From positions 1-64,000 of IMG/VR virus record IMGVR_UViG_3300005201_000042: a stretch of 64,000 nt of DNA; one strand, given 5' to 3'. Of the stretch, positions 3,919 through 59,603 are shown in pieces. Under the pieces are notes generated by a model. That model worked only from the letters and a program-made list of their open reading frames with translations, searched no databases and was not told the origin of the DNA. The translations under genes were made by a program, and so were the position numbers. Within the stretch, counting starts at the first letter, position 1; each line of letters begins with the position of its first letter. The stretch is from a virus (lineage: Duplodnaviria; Caudoviricetes).

Positions 3919-3951
3919 GGACAGGGGAGCAAAGTATCCCCTGTCCATTTT
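3919..3951 (+). terminator. intrinsic terminator
   Basis: GGACAGGGGA/TCCCCTGTCC stem followed by ATTTT. Confidence 0.75.
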
Positions 3952-3956
3952 ATATA
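3949..3956 (+). promoter_or_regulatory. late promoter motif TTTATATA
   Basis: 5 nt before terminase ATG, no SD. Confidence 0.65.
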
Positions 3957-3961
3957 CATGT

Positions 3962-5821
3962 ATGGCTTTGGAGCTCCTTCGTCCTATAGTTCCAATTAAA
4001 GACTGGGTTTGTTCTCCTTTTTACATTGGTGGAGAGACAATTTATCCTTATTGGAAAGATGCAATTGTAGAGTATTTTCATGGGGACAAAAGGGCTTTTA
4101 TCTTTTCTGGTTCTAGTCGTCTTGGAAAATCTTATGCGGCTGCTTTCATCGTTATTAGGTTTATTTACGAGTTATCCTGTATAAAAAACTTTCCCTTACT
4201 TTTCGGTCTATCTCCTACTACGCTTCCTAAAGGTATTTATTTTTCTTTCTCTAATATGGGGGCAGATTCAACTGGTATAAGAAGAATTCAACGTATTTTA
4301 GACCAAATCCCTTATTTTAGTTATCCGTCTACTAAAAGGCGGGATGTCCAATCTCACATCTCTTTTCCTTTTCTTGAGATTTTTGGCGGCTCACGGGCTA
4401 TTCATTCTCTTGGTTCAGACTTGTTGTTTGCTATTTTCGACGAGGCTAACAAGCGTGGTAATGTAGCAAAATCAAACGCAGTACAAGACGCGGCTAACAT
4501 TTGGATGGAAATCAGAATGAGGTCTGAGTCTACTTTTTCAATTAACGGTGTTTGGGGTGGTATGGCAGGCATTATTTCCACGGCTGGTCAAAGTTCTTCT
4601 TTTGTGGATATGGAATTAGAGAAAGCAAAAACTCACGGTAATTATTTGATAAGGGAGGCAGCTGTTTACGATGTGCGTCCAGCTTCTTACTCAAAGGAAA
4701 GGTTTATAGTTTACCCAGGTGGTGCAGGTGTTCCTGCATTTATCTCTGATTCTGCTTCTCCTGAGGCTATTCAAGCAGTAAATGGTTTAGGTATGTCTGT
4801 GGAACAGTTTTTAAAAGAGAAGTCTTCTTTGCTGGTTCATCCGCCTGTTTCGTTAAAGCATTTTTATGAGGAGAGTCTTGAGGTTTCGTTACAAAACCTT
4901 TCAGGGGTTACACGGGCAGGGTCTTCTTTGTTTATTTCTAACAAGGCTTTTATAACTAAAATGTTTGACCCTAGTCTAAAGTTTCCGTCAAGTCTTATTT
5001 TCCCAGATGGTATCCCTCAACTGGGTTTATATGACTCTACTTTGCCGGAGGAACTTGTTGATGAGGATATGTTAAATGAGACTTACGATGGTCAAGCGGT
5101 TTATATCTCTGTCGACCTTGCCAGGGTGAATGACCCCACTGGTTTCTCTGCTATTTTTTATAATGAAGACTTACGAAAGATAATGCCTGTTTTAATAACT
5201 CCTCTTTCTCTGGACAGGTTTAAACCAGGTAATGAGATGGATCCTGTAAAGATGGTAGGTTTAATCACTCATTTGTATCGTCTAGGTGTAAATATAAGGA
5301 TGGTCACTGCTGATGGTTTTCAATCGGATTATTTAATTACGAGGTGTAAATTGTTACTGGGAAATGATAAGGTTGACAGATTTTCGGCTGATAAATCTCC
5401 AGTGGCACACATAACAATGCTTAACTTTATGAAACTTGGTATGTACCGTCTGTACCCTATTCCTCGATTAAAGTATGAGTTGGAGAACCTAATTTATGAT
5501 AAGGTTTCTGGCAAGGTTGACCATAACATCAATTCAGACCCTGCCAACCCTGTGTATTTTAAAGATGTGACGGATGCTTTAGCTTGTTCTTCTCACCAAT
5601 TAAGTATTTATGAGAACCTTTCCTACGAAGATTTAATGGTTACGATGGAGGTTGAGAAAGCACGTAAGTCTAGGTTGGTGGATGATGAAGATGAAGAACT
5701 AGAAGATTTTTATGGGGACGTTGTTGCAGATGAAGATGATTTTTACAGTTCTATTGATGGGTCTGAAAGGGAGCTTGAGCTTGACCCTGTGGATCAGCTA
5801 ATGAAAGATATAATGCCTTAA
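3962..5821 (+). CDS. terL: terminase large subunit
   Basis: Walker A SGSSRLGKS, Walker B AIFDEA, nuclease ISVDLARVND and KDVTDALA. Confidence 0.92.
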   Translation: MALELLRPIVPIKDWVCSPFYIGGETIYPYWKDAIVEYFHGDKRAFIFSGSSRLGKSYAAAFIVIRFIYELSCIKNFPLLFGLSPTTLPKGIYFSFSNMGADSTGIRRIQRILDQIPYFSYPSTKRRDVQSHISFPFLEIFGGSRAIHSLGSDLLFAIFDEANKRGNVAKSNAVQDAANIWMEIRMRSESTFSINGVWGGMAGIISTAGQSSSFVDMELEKAKTHGNYLIREAAVYDVRPASYSKERFIVYPGGAGVPAFISDSASPEAIQAVNGLGMSVEQFLKEKSSLLVHPPVSLKHFYEESLEVSLQNLSGVTRAGSSLFISNKAFITKMFDPSLKFPSSLIFPDGIPQLGLYDSTLPEELVDEDMLNETYDGQAVYISVDLARVNDPTGFSAIFYNEDLRKIMPVLITPLSLDRFKPGNEMDPVKMVGLITHLYRLGVNIRMVTADGFQSDYLITRCKLLLGNDKVDRFSADKSPVAHITMLNFMKLGMYRLYPIPRLKYELENLIYDKVSGKVDHNINSDPANPVYFKDVTDALACSSHQLSIYENLSYEDLMVTMEVEKARKSRLVDDEDEELEDFYGDVVADEDDFYSSIDGSERELELDPVDQLMKDIMP

Positions 5822-5824
5822 AAG

Positions 5825-5863
5825 TTATACACCCTTGTATTCTGTACGCTCTATTGGAAGCTA
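5825..5863 (+). promoter_or_regulatory. early promoter family copy (degenerate -10)
   Basis: TTATACACCC-TTGTAT; -10 GAAGCT is weak. Confidence 0.45.
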
Positions 5864-5908
5864 ATTAGGTGAATTGATAATCGTATAAGGAAATTGGAGG
5901 GAGTTGTA

Positions 5909-6181
5909 ATGTCAGAAAAAAGCGTCAGGGTTATTTGGGAAGATAGGGAAGGTAATCGATCCAGGCTATACGGAGGTGTTGATACGACCTTCTCTGCTAT
6001 TTTGAAGGTTTGGACTGCTTCTGGTAAACATCCGAATGAGTTTAACGCATTGATTGTAGGGGCAAAGGTAAAACCTCATCTGCTTGTGTCTTGTATTCTG
6101 TGGTGTTCTGGTTACGAGGTGGGTAATCTTTTTCAGGGGCTTAGGGATAGTGGACTTTGTAAGGAGGTTCCAAGAAGATGA
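5909..6181 (+). CDS. hypothetical protein
   Basis: ATG after GGAGGGAG. Confidence 0.55.
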   Translation: MSEKSVRVIWEDREGNRSRLYGGVDTTFSAILKVWTASGKHPNEFNALIVGAKVKPHLLVSCILWCSGYEVGNLFQGLRDSGLCKEVPRR

Positions 6182-6588
6182 TTGATAAACTTAAATTAGA
6201 CATTCCTTTAGGTTATGCTTTAGTTCCTGAGAAGAACTCTAGTTTAACTGCTCATTGCTCTCTTTGTTATTTTAGAGATTATGATTGTGAGAAGTTTGTT
6301 GCTTGTTCTTATAAAACAAAACGGAAGGATTCTGAAAGTGTTATTTATAAATTGGTTAAGCTTAATAATCCTAAGGATGAGGCTATAGAATCACATCAAA
6401 AGGAATCTTCTTTTTTGAAAGGTCTTATTTTGTCAGACGAAGCTAATATGTGTTTTTCGGAGATTTTCTCTGGTCTTGAGGAGAAGTTAGTTTGTCAAGA
6501 AAAGAGAATACGTTCTTTAGAAGAGACAAAACACACTTTGGTTTCTTTAATAAAGCTCGCTAACCAATATATGCAAGATGACAGTTAA
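6178..6588 (+). CDS. hypothetical Cys-containing protein with coiled-coil tail
   Basis: CSLC...C...C..RKD..VIY; ATGA overlap. Confidence 0.55.
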   Translation: MIDKLKLDIPLGYALVPEKNSSLTAHCSLCYFRDYDCEKFVACSYKTKRKDSESVIYKLVKLNNPKDEAIESHQKESSFLKGLILSDEANMCFSEIFSGLEEKLVCQEKRIRSLEETKHTLVSLIKLANQYMQDDS

Positions 6589-6679
6589 ATTTAAGAAGTT
6601 AATGTGGTACATTATATTAACAGCAGTTGGTTTGCTTGGGCTTTTACTGGTTCTTGCTATTGTTATAAGGTAGGTTGGT

Positions 6680-6865
6680 ATGCAGATAGATATTCCAGAT
6701 GAAATTTTTGCAAAAGTAGTCAGAGATTTAAGGCATTTTGAAAGTGGTCATGGAGCTAGGTCAGATTTACATGATGCTCTTTGTGTCTGTGAAACTCTGC
6801 TAGAATTCTTGGATGAGCATAAATGGTATGAGGAGAAATTAATAAGAGGACATTGTGATGAATAA
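6680..6865 (+). CDS. hypothetical protein
   Basis: 61-aa ORF with RBS. Confidence 0.5.
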   Translation: MQIDIPDEIFAKVVRDLRHFESGHGARSDLHDALCVCETLLEFLDEHKWYEEKLIRGHCDE

Positions 6866-8669
6866 AAATTACCTTAATTTTATTAGTTTCGCTCGAGGTA
6901 TTCAATGCGGTTTTAACACAAACGATATTCCATTACTTGAAGAAGAAAACGCACAACAGATTTACGACAAGGCTTTGGTCGGTCTCTGCTCTTCTTTTGA
7001 TATTGAGCAAGACATTTTAAACCAGTATAAGAACGGTGAGTTGGATTCTTGGGATGCTGTTGAACAGTTGGAAGACGAACTTGGTTATTCTTATGATGAT
7101 GCTTGTAAGAAGGTTTCTACTCTTTTTTCGGGTAAATTCTCTAGTAAGTTTGTGATCCCAAAAATAGAGGAAGCCCCCGCTTATTGGATTAGTCCAGATT
7201 GCAGAATTATTTCTGTTTATAAAAAGCACATTGATATGATTTGGGATTGTCCAGAGGCTTTTGGTTATTCTCAAAGGGATTTAGAGAATATTTACGATGC
7301 TTATAGTGAGCCTTATAGATCTGAGGGGGATGCTCGTAATTACATTGTAGATGATATGATTCTTAGACGAGGTTGGATTCGTATTCGTTTTCAGCATGTC
7401 AGTAATCTATATCATGTAGAAATTGGTGAATTACGCAATAAACGAAAAGATGCACTTTGGCTTTGGGCATCTGCCTTAGTACGAGTTAATTCACGAAAGG
7501 CTCTATCAAGAGTTATTATTTGTAAATGCGGTCAAAGCCAACCAGATTTTACAGGTTCTTTACAAGAACTAATTAACTGCAATTTATTTAGTTCTCATGG
7601 CATGGGTTTTCATCTTCTCGTTCCTATAAGTAATGTTTATGATTTTTTAAGTGTAAACCCTATTTATATGGCTTATAATAGGGGAAAGCGTAAACGATCC
7701 AAGTACCACGGCGCATTGGTCAATAATACCTTTGACGATGTTTCTACAGGGCTTTCTACGGTCTCACCTGCTTCTTCAGCATCCACAGCTTCCAGTATCA
7801 AAGCCCACCCCTCTATTCGCTTTCTAGTGGTTAATCATATTCTACATCCTACGAGAAGGCATTTGATACAGTCTTCTCTCTCTGGTTCTCTGGACACTCT
7901 TCTGTATCAAACTTACGTTACTGCTTTGGGAGGCAGGGTTTCCCCAGCTCCTGTTAATACCCCAGGTAATAATCTTAAACACACTGGTAAAAACGGACGG
8001 GTAGTGTTAAGTTTTAAGAGTGATTCAGGTCATTCCACCGAGGTTGACTTGGGAGGCAGTTTAGAGACTGGTTACGTTATACAGCAAATTGATGATGGGC
8101 TGGGTTTGTTTCCTGAAGGCACGGAGATAGGGGATCTTATTAAAAATGATGTTATACAGGAAATTATACGAGGTCAGGTTATGAGGGAAAGAGGAGATTG
8201 GAGTGTTATGAACGAGTTTGATAGAAAAGAGCCTTTTAATCTTATAAAGTCTAGTTCTGAGTACAGTTGGATTTTTTCAATGGCAAGGATGCAAGACCCT
8301 GATAACGATGTTCCCAGTTATCTTCACGATTTATTTTCTAAACTTCCTTTAGATGGATGGTTTGGTGACGATGTCAATCCAGAGCTTTGTAATAAGTTCT
8401 CTGCTCAGGTCGGTGTTAGTCCAGACTATGTTTTCTACTTTACTTTTAAGCGTGGTTCTGACAATCATTCTTTAGCAGAGTCTCCTGAAGGAGATGCATT
8501 TAAATTCTGCTCTTTGTTCCTTCAGAAAGGTTCTCAATGGTTTAAACGAGATAACCTATCTCAGGACGATTTTATTAAATGTAGAGAGTTTGTTCGTGTT
8601 GGTGATGTTTCTTCTGCTGTTTGGGAATTAAAGATGGAATCTACACCTAATAGAAATCCTTTAGCATGA
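6855..8669 (+). CDS. modular putative internal head polyprotein
   Basis: helical GYS module, WISP..GWIR domain, C-terminal MAR module; modules separated by LFSS, LIQSS, LIKSS, IFS. Confidence 0.55.
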   Translation: MMNKNYLNFISFARGIQCGFNTNDIPLLEEENAQQIYDKALVGLCSSFDIEQDILNQYKNGELDSWDAVEQLEDELGYSYDDACKKVSTLFSGKFSSKFVIPKIEEAPAYWISPDCRIISVYKKHIDMIWDCPEAFGYSQRDLENIYDAYSEPYRSEGDARNYIVDDMILRRGWIRIRFQHVSNLYHVEIGELRNKRKDALWLWASALVRVNSRKALSRVIICKCGQSQPDFTGSLQELINCNLFSSHGMGFHLLVPISNVYDFLSVNPIYMAYNRGKRKRSKYHGALVNNTFDDVSTGLSTVSPASSASTASSIKAHPSIRFLVVNHILHPTRRHLIQSSLSGSLDTLLYQTYVTALGGRVSPAPVNTPGNNLKHTGKNGRVVLSFKSDSGHSTEVDLGGSLETGYVIQQIDDGLGLFPEGTEIGDLIKNDVIQEIIRGQVMRERGDWSVMNEFDRKEPFNLIKSSSEYSWIFSMARMQDPDNDVPSYLHDLFSKLPLDGWFGDDVNPELCNKFSAQVGVSPDYVFYFTFKRGSDNHSLAESPEGDAFKFCSLFLQKGSQWFKRDNLSQDDFIKCREFVRVGDVSSAVWELKMESTPNRNPLA

Positions 8670-8672
8670 TGT

Positions 8673-8882
8673 ATGCAGTTAAATATTATCTTTGACGCAT
8701 CTTCTTTAGATGATATGCAGGTTAAACTGAATGAGCATTTTGGGCAGAAAATGCGTCTTATTAGAGTTTCTCTGTCTTTATTTGAATCTTACCATGTGCG
8801 GTTTACCGAGAAGTTTATTCCTCATATCTGGGAGTATCGTGTGGTTTGTAAAGATGGTAAGTATTTCTTTGGTTCTTTATAG
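8673..8882 (+). CDS. hypothetical protein
   Basis: 69-aa ORF. Confidence 0.5.
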   Translation: MQLNIIFDASSLDDMQVKLNEHFGQKMRLIRVSLSLFESYHVRFTEKFIPHIWEYRVVCKDGKYFFGSL

Positions 8883-8884
8883 CG

Positions 8885-8922
8885 TTATACATACTGGTAA
8901 ATTTTGTTAAAGGTGGTATGCT
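8885..8922 (+). promoter_or_regulatory. early promoter family copy
   Basis: TTATACATAC-TGGTAA-N16-TATGCT with extended TG. Confidence 0.55.
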
Positions 8923-8950
8923 TTAATAGGTAAATAGCAGGGAGATTATT

Positions 8951-9373
8951 ATGGCAAGGATTAAAGATGAGAGAACAATTCCACAGCATCTTCAGGATGG
9001 TATGGGTTTTGGGGTCGGTTACGAGGAGATACCATGGGATTTTTGGCTTGGGGATGATGCTGATTGTGGTAAATGCTCCACGATAGCTTGTAGGTATAGT
9101 GTTGAGGATGTATACTACTATTTTTGTTTTGATAGAGATTCACAAGGTGATTTTAAATTCAGAGCTTTAGTTGCATCACAAGAGTCTGGTACAGATTCTT
9201 CTCTTCCCCATAAGTGGTTTGCAAAGAAGTATACAGAACAAGATTTTGAGGGGGTTAGAAAATCAATTTGTCATTGTCAGGAGTACGCTGTTAGTGATTT
9301 AGGTTTAGTTCAGGAGGATATTCATAATCCTTTTAGTTTTATCTATAGGTTGAGGTTATCTAACGAGCTTTAG
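8951..9373 (+). CDS. free-standing MAR/FKFRAL-module protein
   Basis: paralogous to modules inside 6855-8669 and 9395-14755; RBS GGGAG. Confidence 0.65.
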   Translation: MARIKDERTIPQHLQDGMGFGVGYEEIPWDFWLGDDADCGKCSTIACRYSVEDVYYYFCFDRDSQGDFKFRALVASQESGTDSSLPHKWFAKKYTEQDFEGVRKSICHCQEYAVSDLGLVQEDIHNPFSFIYRLRLSNEL

Positions 9374-9377
9374 TTGT

Positions 9378-9385
9378 TTTATATA
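9378..9385 (+). promoter_or_regulatory. late promoter motif TTTATATA
   Basis: directly upstream of the 1.8-kaa polyvalent gene. Confidence 0.55.
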
Positions 9386-9394
9386 ATGTCTGGT

Positions 9395-12300
9395 ATGTCT
9401 ACTTTAAAAAACAAGTCTGTACCTATATTGTCAATGGCAAGGGGTCTTCCCTCGTCAGTTCCTTCTTATGTGTCTAACAGATTTAATTTCCCTGATGAGT
9501 TTGACGGTTATTATGGAGAGAATAAAAATGTTCAGAACGGGAATGTTTTTTCTCGTTATATTGAGCGCAAGGATAAAAATAATGTCCCTTTTGTTTTTCA
9601 TTTTGTTTTTGGTAGAGAGAAACATGCTTCTCTAGGGGAGTCTCTTCAGGGTAACGCATTTAAATTTAGGGCTTTATTTGTTCAGTATGGAGATAGAAGA
9701 TTTGCTAAGAAATATGAAGATGCTGCTTTTGATAACATCGAGAAAGTAGTTGTTAGTAATTTGTTATCTTCTATCAAAGTTCTTGAGTTATCTGAGGTTT
9801 CTGAAATAAGCCCGTTAATTTATATAAAAAGTGGTGTGGAAATCCACTCAAAGATAGTGGATACACGTACGTTAGATTTATTTGAAGATGCTGTCGATGA
9901 AGCTTTTACAACATCTGCTCCCGCACCTACTCCCAAGAAGGAACCAAAGCCTTCAACACAACCTGCTTCTCGCAAGTCAACTCAAAACTACGCTCATGAA
10001 GAGTCCCTTGAAGGTTTAAAAGATAAATACGTCAACACTTCGCAAGGCATTGATGGTTTTGAGGATTCTATTTACCTTCCTAATGGTGAAGAGGTTTCGG
10101 GTATCTGGAGATTAGTGGACGCTTTCTCTGTATCTCCATCTCATAACCCCTTTTCTTTTCACTCTACAAAAGGTTTCCCTCGCACTGCTGGGGGTTCGTC
10201 AGCTAATACAAGGGATTATTATAATGAAACTGACGCACAGTTACAGGTTGTTCAACTCGCAGGTGAGTTTGACGGTCGGGCTTTAGGTTACGATACTGCT
10301 GTCGTTGTTACAAAAGATGGTGTGGTTGTTTCTGGTAACAATAGGACGATGAGTTCTCAATTGGCGGCACGGAAAGGGACAGACACAAAATATATTGCTG
10401 CTCTAATAAAACGTTGTCGTTCTTTTGGTTTTACTCCTGAACAGGTTCAGGCTTTTGAGCACCCACGAGTTGTTTTTGAGATTGACTCTCAAGACTATTC
10501 TCCAGAGCATTTTGATAAATACAATCAATCTGATAAGAAGGAACAGTCTGAGGAAGCACGAATAGTAAAGTTCTCTAAAGTGTCAAAGCCTGATGTTCTT
10601 CGGGGTATTGCAGATGTTGCACGAAGGTATCAGTTTGATTTAACTCAAGTGTTTGCTATTCCTGCTGCCTGTGAAGAATTGATGTCTGTGTTTGTAAAAG
10701 CCAAAGTATTTAGTCAGGCAGAGCTTCCTAAGTACTTTGATGGAAATAAGGTGTCTTCTGCTGGTAAGCAGTTTTTATACGAATATATCTTAGGTGGTGT
10801 TTTATCCGAGCCTGTGGTTCGGGCTTTGTATTCTGAGGGTATGGGTAACTTGAAGCAAGCAGTAATTGGTTCTGCTCAGCTACTTTTAGAGAACTGGGCT
10901 TGTGGTAGTTATTCTGTTATGGACGAATTGAATGCTGCTATTCGTTACGCTATCTCATTTGTTACTGAGGTAAACAACGGCACGTTTGTAGTGCCTAAAA
11001 TTGATAAAGATGAAGCTAAAGCAATGTCTGCTGATGATAAGGTGGCTCACAACTTAAAAGCGTTCAATGTATGGGCTAGTCAAGGGGATTTGTTAGAGGA
11101 CAGGCATCCGTTGGTTTTGAAGCTTGCAGGGGCGTTGGTCTACTCTGTTCCTTTATTTAAAGATTATTTAACTAGGTTAAACACGGCTACAGCTTCTGCT
11201 GCTAAAACCGAGAGGGAAACTGAGGAGGCTGGTAACTCTGGCCTGTTCGGAGATGAGGAAGACTTTACGCCTGATCGTTATGGTTTATTAGAAAAAGCTG
11301 TAGCTTCGTGGCAAAGAAGAAATTTTGTTAAGAGAAATATATTAAGTTCTGTATTGAGGGGTAGTTTTTCTTTGTTTCCAGTTAAAAGGGATTGGAGTAA
11401 TATCTTTTCTAGTGTTGGTTCTGGGGCTAGTGTCTTTCAAAAGCTAGGAGACGTGTTAAAGTCTGGTTCTTCTTTTGTTGTTCAAAACTCTGAGTTGGGT
11501 AGCATTAGTATCGACAAAGGTTGCACGGGAAAGAATGGTTACGGGCTTTTGCACATTATCGAGGCGAGGCATTTTAGAGATAAGCTTTCTGTAGACGATC
11601 TTTGTGGTCTTATTTACAAAGTTGTAGAAGCCGCAGAAGGTGGTGAAGTTGTGTCGCATCAACCTGATCTTAAAGCTGGTCTTGATTACGGTCATGTGGG
11701 TATTGAGAAAGATGGTGTTATTGCTTATGTTAGCTTGGCTCGGTATGAAGATGTAAAAGATCGCTTCATATTAACTGGGTTTGCAATTTATGAAAAAGAA
11801 AAAGAGGCGACCGATGCTATACGAACGGGTATCGCTCAGTATGGCTACTCGCCTGAGTTCTCTTGTTTCCGATCTCAGGTGGGAGCGGTTATCGCCTCTC
11901 TTAATGGAGTATGTGGTAGTTTTTCAAATAATGCAAGTGTGTATAAAAACGGAGGTTTTATGGCAAATAATAAAACGATGGTTCGGTCTGGTCTAACTGG
12001 AGCTGGTACTGAAATGGACACAATGATTTCCGATATAAAAAATCTATTTGATAACCATCAAATTTCTGACAGTGAGGCTTATAAAAGGTTGTCAGGGCTT
12101 GGGCTTTCTGATCCTTTTATTCATAGGGTGATGGTAGATTGGTTTCATAGTAAAGAAGCTAGGCTTGCATCTGGTTTCTATCCTCATAGAAGTCTTCAAT
12201 CTCAAGCTCTCTTTCAAGACCTAAAAAACAAGATAATGAAATGGACTGCTCAAGACCCTAACAACAAAAAAGCCTATCAACAGGCTATGAAGTTGTTTAG

Positions 12301-14755
12301 GGAAAACTTCGGTAAGCATCCTCAAACTGAAAGAGACGCAAAGGTTATATTGAAGACTGCAAAGAAGATGGCTAAGACTGGTCAGATTTACGATGCAGAG
12401 TCTTTCAAACAAGAAGCCCAACAGGTAATGAATGAACAACCCCAGCAAGGTACACAAACTCAGACGCAACAGCAATCTCAAGGTCAACAAGGAAGTGTAG
12501 ACGCTTCTGATCCTGTGGCTCTGTTCAAAGCCATTCAAGCTCTCTACAGATACGGCTCTATTTCTAAAGATCAGGTTGATAAGGCTTTTAGAATGGTTGT
12601 AGGTGGTCAAGGAAGGCAAAATGCTTATAATATGTCAAACCAATCTCAAGGCGAGCAGATGGCTGCTTCCTTAAAGAGGGTTTCTTCTGGTTATGGTGCT
12701 TCTGACGATATTCCCTACGGGTTTAAACAGTTTGATCATGCAGTTAGAATCTACGACTCAAGTAAAGGTATGTTTGACCACTGGTATGCTCCTTCGGGCA
12801 TGGGAAATATCTCAGTTTATGAAAATAAGGATGGTTCTGGGCGGCTTGGCACTCTGAATTTTTCACTATTGAAGGTGTCTCCAGACCAGTTTTGGGGTTT
12901 TATTCGAGACAACGGGCTACTTGCTTCTGACGATGTTTATTCCTCTGTGGGGCTTTCTTCTGGTAAAAACCCAGGTGTAAGATTTGATAGACTTCCCAAG
13001 GGTGTTTCAGGTTTACAAATAGGTTCCAGGGTTAAATTCACACCTCTCAAGTCATCTAAAGACAATCTAGACTTTGTTGCACAGAAAGACACATTGTACG
13101 CTGGTAAAACTGGTGTTATAAGAGCAATTAAAAACGAAGTCTACAATGTTGAAATGCCAGATGAAGATGGTGTCCCAGGAGAGGTGATCTCTGCTCATAG
13201 TATGGAGTTACAGCGAGTAGCCTCTGAGGAAGAACTTTTCTCTGCCAGGGGTATTATTGCAGACCCAATGAGGGAGTACGTTCAACAATTTCTTTCTAAT
13301 ATTCCTTCTTTCACAAAAGTTCCAACAAACTACAAAGATGAACGTATTGTGAAGGAGAAACTAGAGCCTGATCATGTTTGCTATTGGTATTCCGAGACCA
13401 TTGATAATGGTAAGCCTTATACTGTTGAGTTCCACGTGTCTCCAGGTGAACCTTTTTGTGATGTGTATGTGGTTCGTGATTTTGATAATCACCCTTTGGA
13501 CGATGGAGGTTATCACATCGCAGATTTCGAAGATTGGAATTTATCTGAGGTTGATTATGTAGAGGGTTTGTTTGCTAAGGAAAAAGCTTTTACCGGGGAT
13601 AGTGCTTCTTTTGATAAAACTAAGACAAAGCCTGTAGAAGATGGTTTTGACGATGAAGATTATTCACAGATTATGGCTGGGTTGGATCCTCGAGTTTCTA
13701 TCATGTTAGAACTACATCCTGAACTTAGTCACTGGTCACCAGATGATTTAACAGTGTTATATGAATTGCAAGATAGAGGTGGGGATTATGTAGAAGATGT
13801 AAACCGTGTACTAAATACGAGAGATTCAAAGACTTTATTGTCATCTTTTGATAAATGGTCTGCCAGGGTCAGTGCTGGTCTTTCGCTTGGAAAGGGAATG
13901 TCTTTACCTGATATGGCTATTGTTTCTGGTCTAGCACGGATTTTATCTAGTGATTCTATTTCACGTCCTGATGACTCTTTATTTAAACGTGGTGATCGAG
14001 TAAAAGGGACTCCCAGTAACTATAGAAAAGAAGGTCAGTTGGGTACGGTACAAGGTGTCTCTGAGTACAGTGTTTATGGTGATTCTTGGGATATAGAATG
14101 GGACAATGGTGGTATTTCAAGAGCTTTTAAAAATGAGATTGAGCTTATTTCTTCTGGCTTGGCAAGGGTTTTGTCTGCAGGTGCTAATACTTCCACGGCT
14201 TTAACCCCAGAGGAGGTTGTAAGGGATTTTAAAGATGGCGCGATAGACTGGTATAACGCTTTTGATATGTTAGCTGATTATGAGGTATCTGATGAAGACG
14301 CAGAGAGGATGCTTGGGGTATCACGGGTTGTTCAAGGTTTCACCGAGGGTTACAACAAAACCTTAGACGTAGTGGACACTCTTGTTCATGACCCATTAAA
14401 GACAGTTGATGACGTTGCTTCTCTGCCTTTTAAGTTTTTGGACAAGGTTACTGGGAGGAGCAAGAAGAAGGTTAGGTCAAGTTATACACCCTTGTATTCT
14501 GGTGAGTTTAATCGTATACTATCTGCAGGAACAAGGAGTAGTGTTGTCGAGGAGTTCAACAAACTTCTTGAATCTGTCTTTCCTGATAAAAGATGGGAGT
14601 TGAAAAGAGCAGTTCCTATGAGAGGTGGTTGGTATACTTTAGATTTCTTAACGATAGATAAGTCAGATGTTAATTACAATGTGAAGTTTGACGAGAGGAT
14701 TTTCAAAGTTTGTAAGGATTCTAATAGTATTTGGATTATACAGGAGGATTTATAA
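9395..14755 (+). CDS. large polyvalent virion protein (ddrB-like ParB domain, PBECR-type nuclease domain, SH3/KOW-like modules)
   Basis: VVSGNNRTMS plus NTRDY (ddrB-ParB, ~10075-10500); KGCTGKNGYGLLHIIEARH (PBECR, ~11490-11830); two GxRV...GxV modules; start may be 9386. Confidence 0.7.
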   Translation: MSTLKNKSVPILSMARGLPSSVPSYVSNRFNFPDEFDGYYGENKNVQNGNVFSRYIERKDKNNVPFVFHFVFGREKHASLGESLQGNAFKFRALFVQYGDRRFAKKYEDAAFDNIEKVVVSNLLSSIKVLELSEVSEISPLIYIKSGVEIHSKIVDTRTLDLFEDAVDEAFTTSAPAPTPKKEPKPSTQPASRKSTQNYAHEESLEGLKDKYVNTSQGIDGFEDSIYLPNGEEVSGIWRLVDAFSVSPSHNPFSFHSTKGFPRTAGGSSANTRDYYNETDAQLQVVQLAGEFDGRALGYDTAVVVTKDGVVVSGNNRTMSSQLAARKGTDTKYIAALIKRCRSFGFTPEQVQAFEHPRVVFEIDSQDYSPEHFDKYNQSDKKEQSEEARIVKFSKVSKPDVLRGIADVARRYQFDLTQVFAIPAACEELMSVFVKAKVFSQAELPKYFDGNKVSSAGKQFLYEYILGGVLSEPVVRALYSEGMGNLKQAVIGSAQLLLENWACGSYSVMDELNAAIRYAISFVTEVNNGTFVVPKIDKDEAKAMSADDKVAHNLKAFNVWASQGDLLEDRHPLVLKLAGALVYSVPLFKDYLTRLNTATASAAKTERETEEAGNSGLFGDEEDFTPDRYGLLEKAVASWQRRNFVKRNILSSVLRGSFSLFPVKRDWSNIFSSVGSGASVFQKLGDVLKSGSSFVVQNSELGSISIDKGCTGKNGYGLLHIIEARHFRDKLSVDDLCGLIYKVVEAAEGGEVVSHQPDLKAGLDYGHVGIEKDGVIAYVSLARYEDVKDRFILTGFAIYEKEKEATDAIRTGIAQYGYSPEFSCFRSQVGAVIASLNGVCGSFSNNASVYKNGGFMANNKTMVRSGLTGAGTEMDTMISDIKNLFDNHQISDSEAYKRLSGLGLSDPFIHRVMVDWFHSKEARLASGFYPHRSLQSQALFQDLKNKIMKWTAQDPNNKKAYQQAMKLFRENFGKHPQTERDAKVILKTAKKMAKTGQIYDAESFKQEAQQVMNEQPQQGTQTQTQQQSQGQQGSVDASDPVALFKAIQALYRYGSISKDQVDKAFRMVVGGQGRQNAYNMSNQSQGEQMAASLKRVSSGYGASDDIPYGFKQFDHAVRIYDSSKGMFDHWYAPSGMGNISVYENKDGSGRLGTLNFSLLKVSPDQFWGFIRDNGLLASDDVYSSVGLSSGKNPGVRFDRLPKGVSGLQIGSRVKFTPLKSSKDNLDFVAQKDTLYAGKTGVIRAIKNEVYNVEMPDEDGVPGEVISAHSMELQRVASEEELFSARGIIADPMREYVQQFLSNIPSFTKVPTNYKDERIVKEKLEPDHVCYWYSETIDNGKPYTVEFHVSPGEPFCDVYVVRDFDNHPLDDGGYHIADFEDWNLSEVDYVEGLFAKEKAFTGDSASFDKTKTKPVEDGFDDEDYSQIMAGLDPRVSIMLELHPELSHWSPDDLTVLYELQDRGGDYVEDVNRVLNTRDSKTLLSSFDKWSARVSAGLSLGKGMSLPDMAIVSGLARILSSDSISRPDDSLFKRGDRVKGTPSNYRKEGQLGTVQGVSEYSVYGDSWDIEWDNGGISRAFKNEIELISSGLARVLSAGANTSTALTPEEVVRDFKDGAIDWYNAFDMLADYEVSDEDAERMLGVSRVVQGFTEGYNKTLDVVDTLVHDPLKTVDDVASLPFKFLDKVTGRSKKKVRSSYTPLYSGEFNRILSAGTRSSVVEEFNKLLESVFPDKRWELKRAVPMRGGWYTLDFLTIDKSDVNYNVKFDERIFKVCKDSNSIWIIQEDL
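14482..14520 (+). promoter_or_regulatory. early promoter embedded in CDS
   Basis: TTATACACCC-TTGTAT-N17-TATACT. Confidence 0.75.
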
Positions 14756-14946
14756 TGGCTTGGAAAACAATCTACAAAGGTACTTCAGGGGAAGAAGCAG
14801 CTATGGCTGTAGCAAATAGTCTTCGCAAGGCTGATCGTGAACGTGAAGAGTATTTGCAGAGCAAGCAACAAGCACAGGTTTCTACTCCTTCTAACAACTC
14901 AGGTAACTCTTCTGCTAACGTAGCAGCTTCTCTTAAAAGAAACTAA
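14755..14946 (+). CDS. small Q/N/S-rich protein
   Basis: ATG overlaps upstream TAA; RBS AGGAGG; ends VAASLKRN. Confidence 0.6.
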   Translation: MAWKTIYKGTSGEEAAMAVANSLRKADREREEYLQSKQQAQVSTPSNNSGNSSANVAASLKRN

Positions 14947-15175
14947 TCAACTTAAGTATGGAGCCTTATTATAAGGATATACAGTCTTTACCTTTGATGG
15001 AGTTGGAGTCTGTTAATCTCCCCCATTCAATTAGACCTTTTCCAAGTTACTGACTTATGGACTGGTAGTATTGTAAATTGTGATCTTCAACATGAGTTTT
15101 TATTCTGTTATCCTGTTAGTGAGCTTTCCATACAAATTTGAGTTAACAGGTTACCTGATTTTCGTATTAGGGTGT

Positions 15176-15571
15176 ATGTTGAAAAAAATAATTAAAGTGA
15201 GACCTCACATGAAGTCTCTTGGTCTTACTCCTTACAAGAAAGATGATATGGCTTTTTATGCGGCTTTACTAGAATCTGGCTTTGTTTCTTCTCCACGGTC
15301 TTTACGTGGTACAAGGAAAGACTCTGTTTCTGGCTTTTTATGGAAAAGGAAATTTGAATTTATAATGAAACATCGATATGGCATTTCTATAAAAGATGTC
15401 GCTTGGGCTTTAGCCTTTGTTAACAACGAGGTTAAGGGGAAGATTTCATCGAAAAAGTATGCAGATGTTTCTCTTCACAATGTGTTCTTAAATAACTATG
15501 GTTTAGTACAGGTTCAAGTCGGTTACTCTCCTAAAGAGTCAGTTATATTAAGTTGTAAGAAGTTAGCCTAG
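15176..15571 (+). CDS. hypothetical basic protein
   Basis: likely ATG after TTTTCGTATTAGGGTGT. Confidence 0.5.
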   Translation: MLKKIIKVRPHMKSLGLTPYKKDDMAFYAALLESGFVSSPRSLRGTRKDSVSGFLWKRKFEFIMKHRYGISIKDVAWALAFVNNEVKGKISSKKYADVSLHNVFLNNYGLVQVQVGYSPKESVILSCKKLA

Positions 15572-15578
15572 GAGTCTT

Positions 15579-15878
15579 ATGTTTCAGGTTGTTTGTACAA
15601 ATTGTGGTGAGAGTATTGTTGATCTTTCTATAACTTATAAATTCCATACAGTGTGTTCAGAATGTAAGTCTAAGCTGGAGGAGGCTGCTTCTTTATTACA
15701 TACTTTTGAAGACAAGATTAAAGTAGAGACAAATGTTGCACGAACTTATAGTGAGCCTTACTGTACAAAGTGTGGTAGGCTAATAACTGAGTTTGAGGAG
15801 TATGTAGTAACCAAGACAGGTGCTGTCTGTATTTCCTGTTATGCAGATGAAGGTGTTCTTTATAGTTTCAGTAGCTAA
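15579..15878 (+). CDS. zinc-finger protein
   Basis: four CxxC pairs; RBS AGGAG. Confidence 0.6.
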   Translation: MFQVVCTNCGESIVDLSITYKFHTVCSECKSKLEEAASLLHTFEDKIKVETNVARTYSEPYCTKCGRLITEFEEYVVTKTGAVCISCYADEGVLYSFSS

Positions 15879-15911
15879 TTTTTACTATAATTTCAATTTT
15901 AAATAAACCAA

Positions 15912-15949
15912 TTATACACACTTGTTATATTTTCTTCATGCGTTAATGT
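15912..15949 (+). promoter_or_regulatory. early promoter family copy
   Basis: TTATACACAC-TTGTTA-N16-TAATGT. Confidence 0.7.
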
Positions 15950-15978
15950 AGTTATATAAACTTAACGGAGGGAAGTGA

Positions 15979-18700: not shown

Positions 18701-18701
18701 T

Positions 18702-19034: not shown

Positions 19035-19070
19035 AGGTGGCTCAAGGGGTTTCAAAAAAGGAGGGTTGAT

Positions 19071-20477: not shown

Positions 20478-20485
20478 TTTATATA
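20478..20485 (+). promoter_or_regulatory. late promoter motif TTTATATA
   Basis: intergenic, upstream of 20531. Confidence 0.55.
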
Positions 20486-29992: not shown

Positions 29993-30000
29993 TTTATATA
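29993..30000 (+). promoter_or_regulatory. late promoter motif TTTATATA
   Basis: intergenic, upstream of 30042. Confidence 0.55.
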
Positions 30001-35091: not shown

Positions 35092-35099
35092 TTTATATA
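35092..35099 (+). promoter_or_regulatory. late promoter motif TTTATATA
   Basis: upstream of portal RBS. Confidence 0.6.
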
Positions 35100-37748: not shown

Positions 37749-37756
37749 TTTATATA
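37749..37756 (+). promoter_or_regulatory. late promoter motif TTTATATA
   Basis: upstream of protease; overlaps the CTCACTT/AAGTGAG inverted repeat. Confidence 0.6.
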
Positions 37757-39611: not shown

Positions 39612-39727
39612 TTTTATTTTCCCTATAATTCAAAAATTAAATATATTTTCTATTTTCTCTCCTCGATGATCTGTGTAAATAACTCTTGATATATTTCTGA
39701 AAAATCCTCGATTTTAATTTTCTTGTT

Positions 39728-39735
39728 TCTATATA
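39728..39735 (+). promoter_or_regulatory. late promoter variant TCTATATA
   Basis: upstream of major capsid gene. Confidence 0.45.
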
Positions 39736-43476: not shown

Positions 43477-43508
43477 GCCATCCTTCGGGATGGCTTTCGT
43501 TTTATATA
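43477..43508 (+). terminator. terminator fused to late promoter, copy 1
   Basis: GCCATCC-TTCG-GGATGGC-TTT then TTTATATA (43501-43508). Confidence 0.85.
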
Positions 43509-47125: not shown

Positions 47126-47126
47126 T

Positions 47127-48364: not shown

Positions 48365-48397
48365 GCCATCCTTCGGGATGGCTTTTTGTTTTATATA
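48365..48397 (+). terminator. terminator fused to late promoter, copy 2
   Basis: GCCATCC-TTCG-GGATGGC-TTTTT then TTTATATA (48390-48397). Confidence 0.85.
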
Positions 48398-49601: not shown

Positions 49602-49609
49602 TTTATATA
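49602..49609 (+). promoter_or_regulatory. late promoter motif TTTATATA
   Basis: upstream of the sheath operon. Confidence 0.6.
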
Positions 49610-56509: not shown

Positions 56510-56517
56510 TTTATATA
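56510..56517 (+). promoter_or_regulatory. late promoter motif TTTATATA
   Basis: 5 nt before ATG 56523. Confidence 0.65.
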
Positions 56518-56522
56518 TGTAC

Positions 56523-57377
56523 ATGGCTTTAGGTATGCTGTTAAGCGGTTTTTCTCCTATAACTCTTTATGACAGGTATACTCTTCCTTCAGAGAAGGCT
56601 TCTACGAATGCTTGTCAGGTGAGGATACACTGTCCAGGGAAGCAAAGAACAATTTATGCTATGTTATCAGAAGGGTTTGTTATCTCATCTAAATCTGAGT
56701 GGAAGAGTCTTTTTGGTAGTGGGGGCAGTGGTGTTGCTGGTGCTGATCTTGGAAAGGTTATAGGGATAATAGATAATTCTGCTCAGTTTATTGCTGGGTA
56801 TACTTTACGTCAACCTTATTTTGGACGTAAGTACTGGTGTGGTACAGACCCATTAAAGTTTTCTCTTACTTTTCAGTTTGTTTCTTTTTCCGATGCAAAA
56901 GCTGATGTGTATGACCCTATGGTAAGCTTGCTGTCTCTTCTTTATCCTCGAAAGAGTTCTTTAGATGAAACGGCTCATTTATTTGAGGCTTATTTTATTC
57001 CGGGACCCAACTTATTTTACAATGTTTCTTCAGGTTCCAATGGTGATGATGGAGATAGAGTTGAGATTACTATGGGGAATTTTTTGAGCTTTAAAGGTTG
57101 TTATATTAATTCTGTGTCTTTTCACGTGGAGAATTCATTTAGTACAGATGGTTATCCAAATTGTGTCAAGGCAGAGATGGCATTTGAAACTATGGACGTT
57201 GCTTTTGTGAATGGTGATGGAGCTTTTATGGAGAAAGGGTTTGGGGATGCTTCTGTGGATATTGGTGATGGGGTGGCTTCTCTTAAAGAGTTAGCTAATC
57301 ATTTGTTTGAGGAAGGGAAAAATCTGGTTACCAAGACAAAGGATGTACTTTCAGGTTTTTTGTCTTTAAAATTTTAA
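56523..57377 (+). CDS. baseplate/tail tube initiator-like protein
   Basis: PLKFSLTFQF, FKGCYINSVSF; position after TMP. Confidence 0.6.
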   Translation: MALGMLLSGFSPITLYDRYTLPSEKASTNACQVRIHCPGKQRTIYAMLSEGFVISSKSEWKSLFGSGGSGVAGADLGKVIGIIDNSAQFIAGYTLRQPYFGRKYWCGTDPLKFSLTFQFVSFSDAKADVYDPMVSLLSLLYPRKSSLDETAHLFEAYFIPGPNLFYNVSSGSNGDDGDRVEITMGNFLSFKGCYINSVSFHVENSFSTDGYPNCVKAEMAFETMDVAFVNGDGAFMEKGFGDASVDIGDGVASLKELANHLFEEGKNLVTKTKDVLSGFLSLKF

Positions 57378-57632: not shown

Positions 57633-58451
57633 ATGGAGTCTCTTATTAATCTTGATGAAAATGCTAATCTAGTCACTAGAGCTTCCTTAACACAGGATTT
57701 TAGAGACGTACACTCTAAATGCTGGGTAGTTTTTTCTTTACCGGTTGACACATATTTTAGAGAGGGTTCTGGTTTTACTTGCTGGGGCACACAATGGGAG
57801 GCAATTTCTTATAAGAAGATTGCTGTCAATGAGGGAGTCTTTACTTACTCTGTTATTGGTTATCCTTTTGGTATTTCTTCTGTCGTGGCTTCAAAGCAGG
57901 TTTCTCTATCTAACCTAGCTAGAGATAGAGGTGTTTCATTTGATTCAAAGGTTTCAACAGATTTTAATTTTGAGTTTCCTCTTCGGAATCTTCCTCTTGG
58001 GGTTTTGCTTTATAAGTACAGGTATAATTCTATAGAGGTTAATGTATCTGATCCTGCACAAGCTTGGTTTATATTTTATGACGAGAGGGGTCTAGTTGGA
58101 CAGACTTACGCTTCTATGGCTCGAGGTGAGCTAAAGACGTATGATATGGATATGTGTCGTTTTATGGGTGGTTCTGTAAGTTTTGTGAGAGACTATCAGG
58201 CTACAGGTTACTTTCGAGACCACCCTCCGAGCAAGCATTCGTATAAGAGGTTAATTAGTTCATTTATTGGGGATAAGTTTGATGTCAAAGGAAGGTTTCC
58301 AGCTATGATTGGTTCCAGGTATAAGTTTTCAGGAGAAGAGGAAACTTTAGCTTCGAAGTATAATAAGTTAATTTTAGTGAGGCAGAAGTACGATTCAACG
58401 AAACTTCCTTTACCGTGGACGTTAACTTTTGGTCAATTGTTGGTAGGTTAA
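57633..58451 (+). CDS. baseplate hub-like protein
   Basis: position between LysM-like and spike genes. Confidence 0.45.
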   Translation: MESLINLDENANLVTRASLTQDFRDVHSKCWVVFSLPVDTYFREGSGFTCWGTQWEAISYKKIAVNEGVFTYSVIGYPFGISSVVASKQVSLSNLARDRGVSFDSKVSTDFNFEFPLRNLPLGVLLYKYRYNSIEVNVSDPAQAWFIFYDERGLVGQTYASMARGELKTYDMDMCRFMGGSVSFVRDYQATGYFRDHPPSKHSYKRLISSFIGDKFDVKGRFPAMIGSRYKFSGEEETLASKYNKLILVRQKYDSTKLPLPWTLTFGQLLVG

Positions 58452-58452
58452 T

Positions 58453-59199
58453 ATGGGAGGTGTTTTATGTAAGGGTGATCCTTCTGGTGTGGAGGCAACA
58501 GGTGTTTATCAGGGTGTTTTAGTTGAAGACATGATTGACACTGTTAAGAGGGTAAAGAAGCCTTTTATAGATGTTTTTATTGAGGGTATGTTTTTTAAAG
58601 ATGCTGATTATCCTCTTACGTATGTTCCAATGTTTAATATGGTTCTGCCTCTAAAAAAAGATCAAAAAGTGTTTGTATATTTTAATCAAGATAACCAGCG
58701 TTATCCTGTGTTGTGGAAGCTAGCAGATGAAGTAAGTAAAGAGTATATAGATAAATACGGGTTTCCTAAGGGTGGCTTGGTTTCCTTCCCTGATGCTGAG
58801 GATACCACTGAAGTAACAAAGTTTTCGGACTTCTGCTGGTTTATTGGCACAAAATCTTATGGAGTGTTTAACTGGGGTGAACAATGTGTTTTATTAAACA
58901 AAGATAGCATCATAACAAATGCTAGAGGCAGTTTGCAATATAAATCTGGAGGAGACTTTGTAGTTGAGTCTTTTAATGATATTATATTGAAGTCTACTGC
59001 AGGGAAGGTGACTTTAAATGGGACGGGTCAAGATTTAGGTTCAGTATTGTGTGATCTTGTTCAGCATCTTCTTACCTATCTTCCTACAGCTACTGTTGCT
59101 CTTCCTACAGGGTCTGTGTGCCCTGTTTATTCTCCAACGTTTATGTCTGACTTAAATTCTGTCTTAGGTAGTTTTCAAACAGGTTTCAAAGGTAGTTAA
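58453..59199 (+). CDS. baseplate central spike (gp5/gpV-like)
   Basis: OB-fold LPLKKDQKVFVYF...RYPV, followed by beta-helix repeats. Confidence 0.65.
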   Translation: MGGVLCKGDPSGVEATGVYQGVLVEDMIDTVKRVKKPFIDVFIEGMFFKDADYPLTYVPMFNMVLPLKKDQKVFVYFNQDNQRYPVLWKLADEVSKEYIDKYGFPKGGLVSFPDAEDTTEVTKFSDFCWFIGTKSYGVFNWGEQCVLLNKDSIITNARGSLQYKSGGDFVVESFNDIILKSTAGKVTLNGTGQDLGSVLCDLVQHLLTYLPTATVALPTGSVCPVYSPTFMSDLNSVLGSFQTGFKGS

Positions 59200-59326
59200 T
59201 TTTAATCATAATTTAGATTTTCGTGGGGGTGAGTGTGAAGGAACCAAAGATACTAACACATATGTAATCATAAAACAGAGTGTATTTATTACTAGAATAT
59301 TATTTATTAAAGTTAAGTGTCTTTCT

Positions 59327-59334
59327 TTTATATA
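59327..59334 (+). promoter_or_regulatory. late promoter motif TTTATATA
   Basis: 5 nt before ATG 59340. Confidence 0.65.
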
Positions 59335-59339
59335 TTGTT

Positions 59340-59603
59340 ATGGTCGAGTTCTCAGAAAACCTATCTAAGCGGTATGAAGGTGGTTCTGCCACTGTACAAC
59401 GTGCTTATTACAGGTTAGCTGTCAGGGTTGGTGAGATTCCTTATTTTGGTAGAGGTTTAGACCTACAAGATTTCCCTATTGGGGAAGATATATCAGGTGC
59501 TGTTCTTAGTGTTCTGTCTGATCTTAATGCAGATATTGATGTTTCTGGGGACAGAGTCTGTGTTGCAGGGGTTATGTTAGATGTTCCAAGAGGTTCCTTT
59601 TGA
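59340..59603 (+). CDS. baseplate wedge gp25-like
   Basis: GEIPYFGRGLDL; small size; position. Confidence 0.55.
   Translation: MVEFSENLSKRYEGGSATVQRAYYRLAVRVGEIPYFGRGLDLQDFPIGEDISGAVLSVLSDLNADIDVSGDRVCVAGVMLDVPRGSF

Follow-up and report, generated by a model that had tools for sequence, protein, structure and literature searches.

A dispersed 8-nucleotide box is a probable late promoter predicted to give leaderless messages for a subset of late genes in a putative distant T4-like phage

The DNA analysed here (the window) is the first 64 kb, positions 1 to 64,000, of the 86,115-bp viral record IMGVR_UViG_3300005201_000042, which is estimated to be 60% complete; the subject of the analysis is an 8-nucleotide (nt) element, TTTATATA (the box), which recurs along it ahead of packaging, virion and other genes. 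The GC content is 39% and the long open reading frames (ORFs) all lie on the plus strand. Searches against Pfam and PHROG gave matches to a T4-type portal protein (gene start at 35119), a prohead protease of family S77 (37776) and a Gp23 capsid protein (39778), together with tail tube, tape measure, T4_baseplate and Gp10_C matches and a weak large-terminase (terL) match at 3962. Replication functions are represented by a clamp loader at 1336 (phrog_5846, E 3.7e-41) and, beyond the window, by polymerase, DnaB-type helicase, primase, SSB and ligase. These family matches, although few and weak, fit a distant T4-like phage. A strong Shine-Dalgarno (SD) sequence, defined as a duplex with a generic anti-SD of free energy (dG) <= -6, is present at 61 of the 119 gene starts of the record, compared with 16% of random positions. 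Since about half of the gene starts carry a strong SD, initiation in the host is SD-dependent.

The exact box occurs 24 times in the window (17 copies on the plus strand and seven on the minus strand), compared with an expectation of 4.58 +/- 2.32 and a maximum of 10 in 100 dinucleotide-preserving shuffles, none of which reached 24. In five cases exactly 5 nt separate a copy from an ATG that opens a long ORF, a spacing that we write as N5, where N is the number of nucleotides between box and start codon; the genes concerned are terL (3962) and those starting at 43514, 48403, 56523 and 59340. The arrangement TTTATATA-N5-ATG occurs five times in the forward direction and never in reverse, and a reversed-pattern control gave none. 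Among the 20 plus-strand boxes of the 86-kb record, five have an ATG at N5 (binomial P = 4e-5, or 6e-4 when corrected for 16 offsets), and the box at -13 is the joint commonest 8-mer at any fixed position before the gene starts (5/119), tied with the one-base-shifted overlap TTTTATAT at -14, also with five. Fourteen of these 20 coding-strand boxes lie no more than 80 nt upstream of the first in-frame ATG or GTG of an ORF of at least 60 amino acids (aa), and 12 of the 14 are at intergenic sites; by the same 80-nt criterion, none of the nine boxes on the opposite strand of the record precedes an ORF. A preliminary description of this DNA, made from its letters alone, had placed the box at N5 of the same five SD-less ATGs and had suggested looking genome-wide for enrichment at -13, and both points are borne out. 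The same is true of the boxes that it listed with leaders ahead of 9395, 20531, 30042, the portal gene, the protease gene and the sheath block (found at 9, 45, 41, 19, 19 and 15/18 nt), of its variants before the capsid gene and 62427, and of its intragenic copies at 9819, 20284 and 24014, to which further copies can be added. All sites are collected in Table 1.

None of the five N5 starts has an SD, the duplex with the generic anti-SD having a dG of -1.5 or weaker, and none of the five genes has an SD-bearing in-frame alternative start within 60 codons or upstream; 3962 and 48403 have no in-frame start upstream at all. For terL the only in-frame alternative is a TTG at codon 3, and the N-terminus (MALELL...) is kept from residue 1 in homologues. 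The gene at 48403 has no other in-frame start within 60 codons, and its orthologue in a complete relative (G001, described below) aligns from residue 1. The database call of the 1203-aa protein at 43514 begins upstream, with the box read in frame (MAFVLYTNM...); no N-terminal conservation was found for this protein, whose homologues span just 28-41% of its length and have unrelated N-termini.

The conservation extends a little beyond the eight letters. Across the 12 intergenic copies (11 in the window and one at 83783 of the record) the full motif is approximately TT-R-Y-TTTATATA-N4-Y-R, where R is a purine and Y a pyrimidine. On the 5' side, position -4 is T in 10/12, -3 is T in 9/12, -2 is a purine in 10/12 and -1 is a pyrimidine in all 12; on the 3' side, nt 5 is a pyrimidine in 10/12 (T in eight) and nt 6 a purine in 10/12. 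Conservation is confined to -4 to +8 around the box, and no conserved -35 region was found at these 12 sites. The eight intragenic copies do not have the flank signature (a pyrimidine at nt 5 is present in only one of them), and because the flanks are absent, these copies are probably mostly due to chance, the one at 9819 (see below) being an exception. All 12 boxes with the signature stand ahead of terL, the portal gene, the protease gene, the sheath/tube block, or tail or large unknown genes. No signature-bearing box occurs in the replication block (64-83 kb), whose two exact copies (67350 and 74483) lack the conserved flanks. We also noticed that the base at -1 is T at 7/7 short-leader sites and C at 5/5 SD-led sites of this record; as a rule separating the two groups, this fails in relatives and was rejected.

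The boxes fall into two classes according to what follows them. We pooled this record, 10 close loci from metagenomes and the complete relative G001, applying the same threshold for an SD: starts at N9 or closer to the box have an SD in 0 of 21 cases, those at N13 or further in 18 of 23, and there are none at N10-12. For starts at N15-N23, the first base of the SD comes 7-12 nt past the box. The start site should thus lie within about 8 nt of the box, because the SD of this class would otherwise remain untranscribed. Terminators would set a similar limit. The boxes at 3949, 43501 and 48390 each follow, at a distance of 2-7 nt, one of the top-ranked terminator hairpins of the regions scanned, and a further hairpin stands ahead of 83783 (z-scores, z, of -4.4 to -6.2); that before terL is the top-ranked terminator in 1-20000. 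The gap from hairpin to ATG is less than 20 nt and consists almost wholly of U-tract and box. With a hairpin ending 2-7 nt from the box there is no space for another promoter or leader, and if the terminators work, transcription must restart there, with a leader of at most a few nt.

Relatives were sought in several ways. Megablast of 3000-23000 against a phage collection gave no match, and a scan of viral contigs with the single terL protein found no relative. A metagenome scan with a terL alignment found 17 loci, of which nine reach the terL start, with 66-83% protein identity; L028 (a duplicate of L027) and six loci without the 5' end were left out of the comparison, and L033 was set apart. 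In eight of the nine relatives a box with at most one mismatch stands at N5-N6 before the terL ATG or GTG: the exact box at N5 in L021, L022, L023, L024 and L027, a one-mismatch box at N5 in L026 (TCTATATA) and L037 (TTTACATA), and the exact box at N6 in L036. The ninth, L031, has a degenerate box, and L033 (terL 42% identical) has an SD-like AGGAG and no box. The spacer and all the sequence upstream of the box vary, with a hairpin in some loci and the stop codon of the preceding ORF in others; 9 of 10 aligned rows have T immediately before the terL start. The start codon also marks where coding constraint sets in, with residues 2-12 kept and synonymous changes; three of the 17 aligned terL homologues are over-called from upstream codons, with the box read in frame as ..LYT/LYN... 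The close loci hold 15 coding-strand boxes (N5 in seven cases, N6 in two, and N7, N18, N19, N47 and N75) and five on the opposite strand, none of them before an ORF. A box a few base pairs before the start is found at N5 in five genes here and seven in close relatives, and at N6-N9 in five more.

The box is also present in G001, a complete relative of 142,789 bp with terminal repeats, in which terL is 39% identical. Here its form is TTTATATATTT, with 19 copies on the coding strand and eight on the other; 16 of the 19 are no more than 80 nt from an ORF start. Most have SD-bearing leaders, and in front of three genes the box lies at N6-N7 with no SD; the N6 case is the orthologue of 59340. Since terL is SD-led in distant relatives, we consider the box to be old and the set of leaderless genes to be variable.

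The box before the 1786-aa protein is kept in orthologues of this gene, at N5 in L027 and L029, N6 in L023 and N7 in L022. The first ~140 residues of the protein here (9395-9815) are missing from the orthologues in four relatives, which begin at the position of the 9819 box; either the N-terminus is a fusion or two genes have been read as one. The intragenic 9819 box is possibly a relic or an internal promoter. In L023 (5611-8793, P0007) terL itself is interrupted by ~1.4 kb, giving a database protein of 1061 aa, compatible with an intein or another insert behind residue ~40.

Table 1. Boxes, terminators and other dispersed elements. Positions are those of the window unless the record is named; leader classes are predictions.
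Feature	Position	Strand	Context
Intrinsic terminator hairpin	3919..3946	+	10 bp, 7 GC; dG -21.5 kcal/mol, z -4.4; U-tract enters box
Late box TTTATATA	3949..3956	+	N5 to terL ATG 3962; predicted leaderless
Large terminase gene, SD-less start	3962..5821	+	phrog_2 E 1.6e-5; 62 homologues
Late box	9378..9385	+	Before gene of 1786-aa protein; ATGs 9386 (N0) and 9395 (N9); no SD; predicted 0-4 nt leader
Intragenic box	9819..9826	+	Positional orthologue of promoter and start in relatives' shorter orthologues (own residue ~136-141)
Late box	20478..20485	+	45-nt spacer with SD, before GTG 20531 (808 aa, no assigned function)
Late box	29993..30000	+	41-nt spacer with SD, before ATG 30042 (607 aa, no assigned function)
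Late box	35092..35099	+	19 nt before portal ATG 35119 (Portal_T4); AGGAGG SD between
Late box	37749..37756	+	19 nt before prohead protease ATG 37776 (Peptidase_S77); SD between
One-mismatch variant TTTCTATA	39726..39733	+	44 nt before major capsid gene 39778 (Gp23)
Terminator hairpin GCCATCCTTCGGGATGGC and U-tract	43477..43494	+	6 nt before box; z -4.6
Late box	43501..43508	+	N5 to ATG 43514 (1203-aa protein, no assigned function); predicted leaderless
Second GCCATCCTTCGGGATGGC hairpin copy	48365..48382	+	7 nt before box; z -4.6
Late box	48390..48397	+	N5 to ATG 48403 (164 aa); predicted leaderless
Late box	49602..49609	+	15/18 nt before GTG 49625 / ATG 49628; GGAGG SD between
Late box	56510..56517	+	N5 to ATG 56523 (284 aa, PmgG-like, right behind tape-measure gene); predicted leaderless
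Late box	59327..59334	+	N5 to ATG 59340 (87 aa); predicted leaderless
One-mismatch variant TTTACATA	62413..62420	+	6 nt before ATG 62427 (protein with Gp10_C match); no SD
Late box beyond window	83783 of record	+	Start at 83799; large hairpin precedes box; predicted 0-4 nt leader
Sigma-70-like unit copies	14490-14530, 31900-31940, 38560-38600; record 64725-64765		Inside or at ends of late-region ORFs
TTATACACACTTGTTATA(T/C)A copies	15905-15930, 42820-42845; record 72700-72726, 78660-78685		
(T)TTTCGTATAAG copies in window	1316-1330, 5873-5890, 29936-29952, 34400-34416		
(T)TTTCGTATAAG copies in record	65067-65083, 67060-67075, 74925-74941, 79101-79117		

Two of the tabulated sites deserve a comment. 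The box at 49602 heads a block with putative sheath (49909) and tube (51480; phrog_45 tube) genes, and the variant TTTACATA before 62427 recurs before another gene in L027, as well as before terL in L037. Significant Pfam matches to support 'neck' or 'baseplate' labels were not found for the proteins at 43514, 48403, 56523 and 59340, and the sole PHROG match among these genes is phrog_1114, for 56517-57374.

In our view TTTATATA is probably a late promoter from which a subset of the late genes is transcribed into leaderless or nearly leaderless mRNAs. From the motif with its enrichment and flanks, its conservation and the SD dichotomy we infer that the box acts as a promoter, where exactly transcription starts, that it takes place late and that translation is leaderless. 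The box would be a -10-type element without a -35 box for the packaging and virion genes, and others of the late class, in a very distant T4-like clade. Transcription would begin at the purine 6 nt after the box, as in the geometry of T4: with a T4 late box at -13..-6, +1 falls on the A of the N5 ATGs, at the conserved pyrimidine/purine step. At the five N5 genes the A of the ATG would then be the first base of the mRNA, and these messages would be leaderless and translated without an SD. The genes at 9395, 62427 and 83799 of the record would have a leader of only 0-4 nt, and the portal gene, the protease gene, the sheath block, 20531 and 30042 would have short leaders with a normal SD. A strong terminator, its U-tract entering the box, would insulate the unit at 83799 and three of the five leaderless ones. 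The preliminary description had likewise read the box as a phage late promoter whose start site coincides with the start codon, citing the gp55-read promoters of T4 and expecting leaderless terminase, neck and baseplate genes. All the computational tests that were run agree with the promoter and its start site, but the search for gp55 and gp33 gave no match, and the neck and baseplate names gained no support, as described above.

How does this compare with known systems? The cI mRNA made from the PRM promoter of phage lambda is leaderless and begins with AUG. That case differs from the present one in being a single regulatory gene of a temperate phage, transcribed from an ordinary sigma-70 promoter, and not a late structural class. 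The late promoters of T4 are read by gp55 with gp33 and the gp45 clamp. The T4 late box, TATAAATA, occupies -13..-6, and T4-type phages show variants of the consensus, with A or T at the first position and CTAAATA in Aeh1 (PMC1524935). The present box resembles it in being a single 8-bp AT-rich box without a -35 element, ahead of packaging and virion genes, with six of eight letters identical; the implied +1 is the sixth nt after the box, where the conserved purine and the N5 starts fall (PMC1524935). Further points in common are a clamp loader and matches to T4-type portal, prohead protease, capsid and baseplate proteins. It differs from T4 in that the box is TTTATATA and does not match the consensus TATAAATA, that the gp55, gp33 and gp45 families are unmatched in this record and in the complete G001, and that T4 has no such arrangement at its start codons: an ATG at N4-8 follows 2 of 32 T4 boxes, compared with four for a reversed control. 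We have not filed the box as a gp55-type promoter because the proteins that define that type were not found.

The closest described behaviour is, by analogy, that of the Thermus phages. In Lalka27a the start site lies 6 bp downstream of a late -10 box, most transcripts are leaderless with a 5' end at the A or G of the start codon, and the proposed reader is the polymerase of the host after modification by an unidentified phage factor; leaderless transcripts were described earlier for phiYS40, as cited there (bioRxiv 10.64898/2026.04.20.719267). Both systems have a distinct late box and, at the leaderless genes, a start codon at box+6, which is the predicted 5' end here. The sequences differ: Lalka27a and phiYS40 have TAGGGT with a C at -25, compared with TT-R-Y-TTTATATA. 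The hosts differ as well, since those of the Thermus phages belong to a phylum rich in leaderless genes (PMC12340547), whereas here about half of the genes have strong SDs. Only about half of the late promoters here adjoin a start codon, and leaderlessness is predicted from sequence, whereas it was shown experimentally in the Thermus phages. In the cells of Deinococcus-Thermus, genes are commonly expressed from a -10 motif, TANNNT, that adjoins the ORF, and there too a leaderless gene has as its whole promoter a -10-like element lying a short, constant distance ahead of an SD-less start (PMC12340547); that motif is cellular, read by the housekeeping sigma and of the form TANNNT, whereas the present one belongs to a phage, has A as its last base and serves only one gene class. 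Among other phages, published work reports no leaderless transcripts for phiKZ, and leaders of 26-491 nt for AR9. The architecture proposed here is therefore no new principle, having been published for Thermus phages; in the literature searched, on leaderless phage late promoters, YS40, T4-type late promoters and TTTATATA itself, we found no description of the motif or of the clade.

Other explanations of the box have to be weighed against a promoter. The main alternative is that the N5 genes are read from longer transcripts and translated independently of an SD, the AU-rich box acting in the RNA as an unstructured site, like those to which ribosomal protein S1 binds, in place of the SD, with promoter function limited to the SD-led genes. 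The box is indeed AU-rich and sits where an SD would, and L024, L026 and L036 have no terminator there and an upstream ORF whose end is 1-2 nt from the box, so that co-transcription and coupling are possible; it is where an upstream ORF abuts the box in this way that the explanation is most plausible. Overall we regard it as rather unlikely. The spacing is sharper than an enhancer requires, 12 of the 17 short-class cases in this record and its close relatives being N5 and the others N6-N9; the pyrimidine/purine step at nt 5/6 is also found at the SD-led sites, where the box is well upstream of the ribosome-binding site; and strong terminators come right before three of the five sites here and several in relatives. 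The SD-led sites bear equally on a second RNA-level explanation, in which UUUAUAUA-N5-AUG is the operator of a translational repressor of the RegA type. The RegA sites of T4 are AU-rich, unstructured and on or immediately 5' of the AUG (PMC3014915); moreover, a conserved 124-aa ORF (2794-3168) lies behind the clamp-loader genes, the place of regA in T4. Yet boxes 15-45 nt upstream of SD-led starts are outside the ribosome-binding sites of those genes, RegA targets early and middle mRNAs whereas the genes here are for packaging and virion, and the 124-aa ORF matched neither Pfam Translat_reg nor, at a significant level, any PHROG family. In profile searches of the PDB the alignment of its orthologues (A5) gave a single insignificant match (E 0.16), and alignment A4 gave nothing. 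A RegA-type operator is in our view very improbable.

The remaining two explanations concern the DNA itself. If the phage were a virus of a methanogenic archaeon, the box could be an archaeal TATA box with a start about 23 nt downstream. Its eight letters, TTTATATA, are identical to those of the methanogen 'A box' (PMC2699501), and methanogens also use SDs. The promoters of M. jannaschii have a TATA box TWTATATA with the start 23 +/- 2 nt after the box in 94% of cases (PMC2699501), together with an upstream B recognition element (BRE), and neither feature fits here. At seven of the 12 intergenic sites the start codon comes only 5-9 nt after the box, far short of the published distance (PMC2699501); the SDs of the N15-N23 class, 7-12 nt after the box, would stay untranscribed; and the box is preceded by TT-R-Y, not by a purine-rich BRE. 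The record also contains four sigma-70-like TTGNNN-N17-TATAAT/TATACT units, terminators of hairpin and U-tract, and matches to a DnaB-type helicase and a bacterial-type SSB. We rejected this explanation on geometry, start codons and SDs being too near the box, and hold it to be scarcely credible. Finally, an AT-rich 8-mer might recur by chance in AT-rich intergenic DNA: the genome has only 39% GC, eight of the 20 plus-strand copies are intragenic and seven copies lie on the other strand of the window. Against this, none of 100 shuffles reached 24 copies, the N5 spacing has P = 4e-5, box and spacing are kept in relatives whose flanks have diverged, and the minus-strand copies never precede ORFs. 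Chance is thus a negligible explanation.

Several observations count against a late promoter whose start site lies on the start codon. The TANNNT form of ordinary -10 elements is not present, as the TATATA within the box ends in A; in a shifted reading, TATANN, the last place is T in four of the 12 intergenic sites (counted by eye). There are eight intragenic exact copies (in the window at 9819, 20284, 24014, 24578, 54534 and 60325, and beyond it at the two replication-block positions given above), compared with about three expected by chance. Of the nine relatives, five begin terL with ATG and four with GTG, and a GUG at the 5' end initiates leaderless translation poorly in E. coli, yet is used in mycobacteria. 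In L024, L026 and L036, termination-reinitiation could contribute, because the stop of the upstream ORF abuts the box. An alignment-based scan found only loci whose terL is ~40% identical, SD-led and without a box at N5, and there are few close relatives, several of them from related samples and hence not fully independent. The T4 readers were likewise not found: the gp55 profiles phrog_234 and phrog_12791 had no matches at E <= 10 in this record, in G001 or in two further genomes (G002 and G003), although phrog_234 finds T4 gp55 at 2.5e-70; the gp33 profile phrog_254, which finds T4 gp33 at 1.6e-33, had no match in this record or in G001, and nor did the gp45 clamp profile phrog_223. Small divergent proteins may escape such profiles, and 40% of the genome is missing.

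Wider searches for the reader of the box gave some candidates. PHROG and Pfam scans of 74 ORFs in the window and 39 beyond it, with 33 ORFs of unknown function at lenient thresholds, detected no sigma or late-transcription family; T7-type RNA polymerase (PF00940) was not matched either, but the control for this family also matched in no genome, so that this negative carries little weight. A 207-aa ORF of G001 (L047:1171-1791, minus strand; G001:C1:31303-31461, minus strand) has a weak match to sigma-70 region 2, of 17.8-20 bits, below the 24-bit Pfam cut-off, and matches phrog_351 at 5.5e-5. Its product is a candidate for the protein that reads the box; no homologue was found in the 86 kb of the present record. 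A conserved 220-aa ORF (193-855) is located upstream of the clamp loader with two small ORFs between, approximately the place of gene 45 in T4. Right upstream of terL is a conserved 149-aa protein (3453-3902) with an invariant C-terminal G-h-[F/Y]-G-x-L motif. An AlphaFold model of 3453-3899, made with eight orthologues, has a predicted local distance difference test score (pLDDT) of 60 and shows three helices and a disordered acidic tail. The protein has no family or PDB match, and its C-terminal motif is not common to the C-terminus of the polymerase. By analogy with the tails of gp33 and gp55, it may be a clamp-binding transcription factor; this is only a lead, and it could equally be the small terminase.

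If the late-promoter reading is correct, the rule of box, 5 nt and start codon can be used to correct gene starts that are mis-called automatically, as for three of the 17 terL homologues and the 1203-aa protein, and it would define a late regulon for genomes in which most proteins are unannotated. It would also extend leaderless late expression beyond the Thermus phages, to a phage that has strong SDs at other genes. We see only a slim chance that leaderlessness here serves regulation instead of being a by-product of genome compactness. In this reading, a fixed subset of late genes (terL, the 1786-aa protein, and genes that follow the tape measure or head the baseplate block) would have the start codon at +1 across the clade, be it ATG or GTG, while the portal, protease and sheath genes retain their SDs. 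Were it true, and were the phage to alter host translation late in infection, the two classes would differ in schedule or amount, and the cassettes of terminator, promoter and ATG would be insulated, separately dosed units in a host that uses SDs. The questions raised are which factor reads a T4-like box in a phage without detectable gp55 or gp33, and why some late genes only are leaderless.

A few further observations were made in the course of this work. The terminator hairpin GCCATCCTTCGGGATGGC occurs three times in the phage, the third copy being at ~78650 of the record, and a one-base variant precedes terL in L027 (~1808-1825), which suggests a mobile or copied terminator-promoter cassette. 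A GmhA-like gene (20028-20459) has matches in two Bacteroidota genomes, at 43-48% identity; this hint of a Bacteroidota host sits uneasily with the strong SD usage and is not decisive. Beyond the window, an 828-aa ATP-dependent DNA ligase (record 80646-83132; L006:16646-19129) has a LAGLIDADG homing endonuclease match at residues 221-336, and probably carries an intein.

The record contains other dispersed motifs (Table 1). The sigma-70-like unit has the form GTTATACA(C/T)CCTTG(C/T)AT-N17-TATAAT/TATACT, with the 17-nt spacer in all four copies, and these may be early promoters for host polymerase or a repeated cassette. The small SD-led ORFs at 15979, 42894, 72777 and 78787 have a related repeat, TTATACACACTTGTTATA(T/C)A, 50-110 nt ahead of them; the copy at 78.7 kb comes after a copy of the hairpin CCATCCTTCGGGATGG. 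A second dispersed motif, (T)TTTCGTATAAG, stands before the replication genes (clamp loader, exonuclease, helicase, polymerase and the SSB block) and twice in the late region, where one copy is 48 nt upstream of the 29993 box. Its leaders are mostly SD-bearing, and the SD-less ATGs at 65089 and 67084 follow it at 7 and 9 nt; it may be a middle-class promoter.

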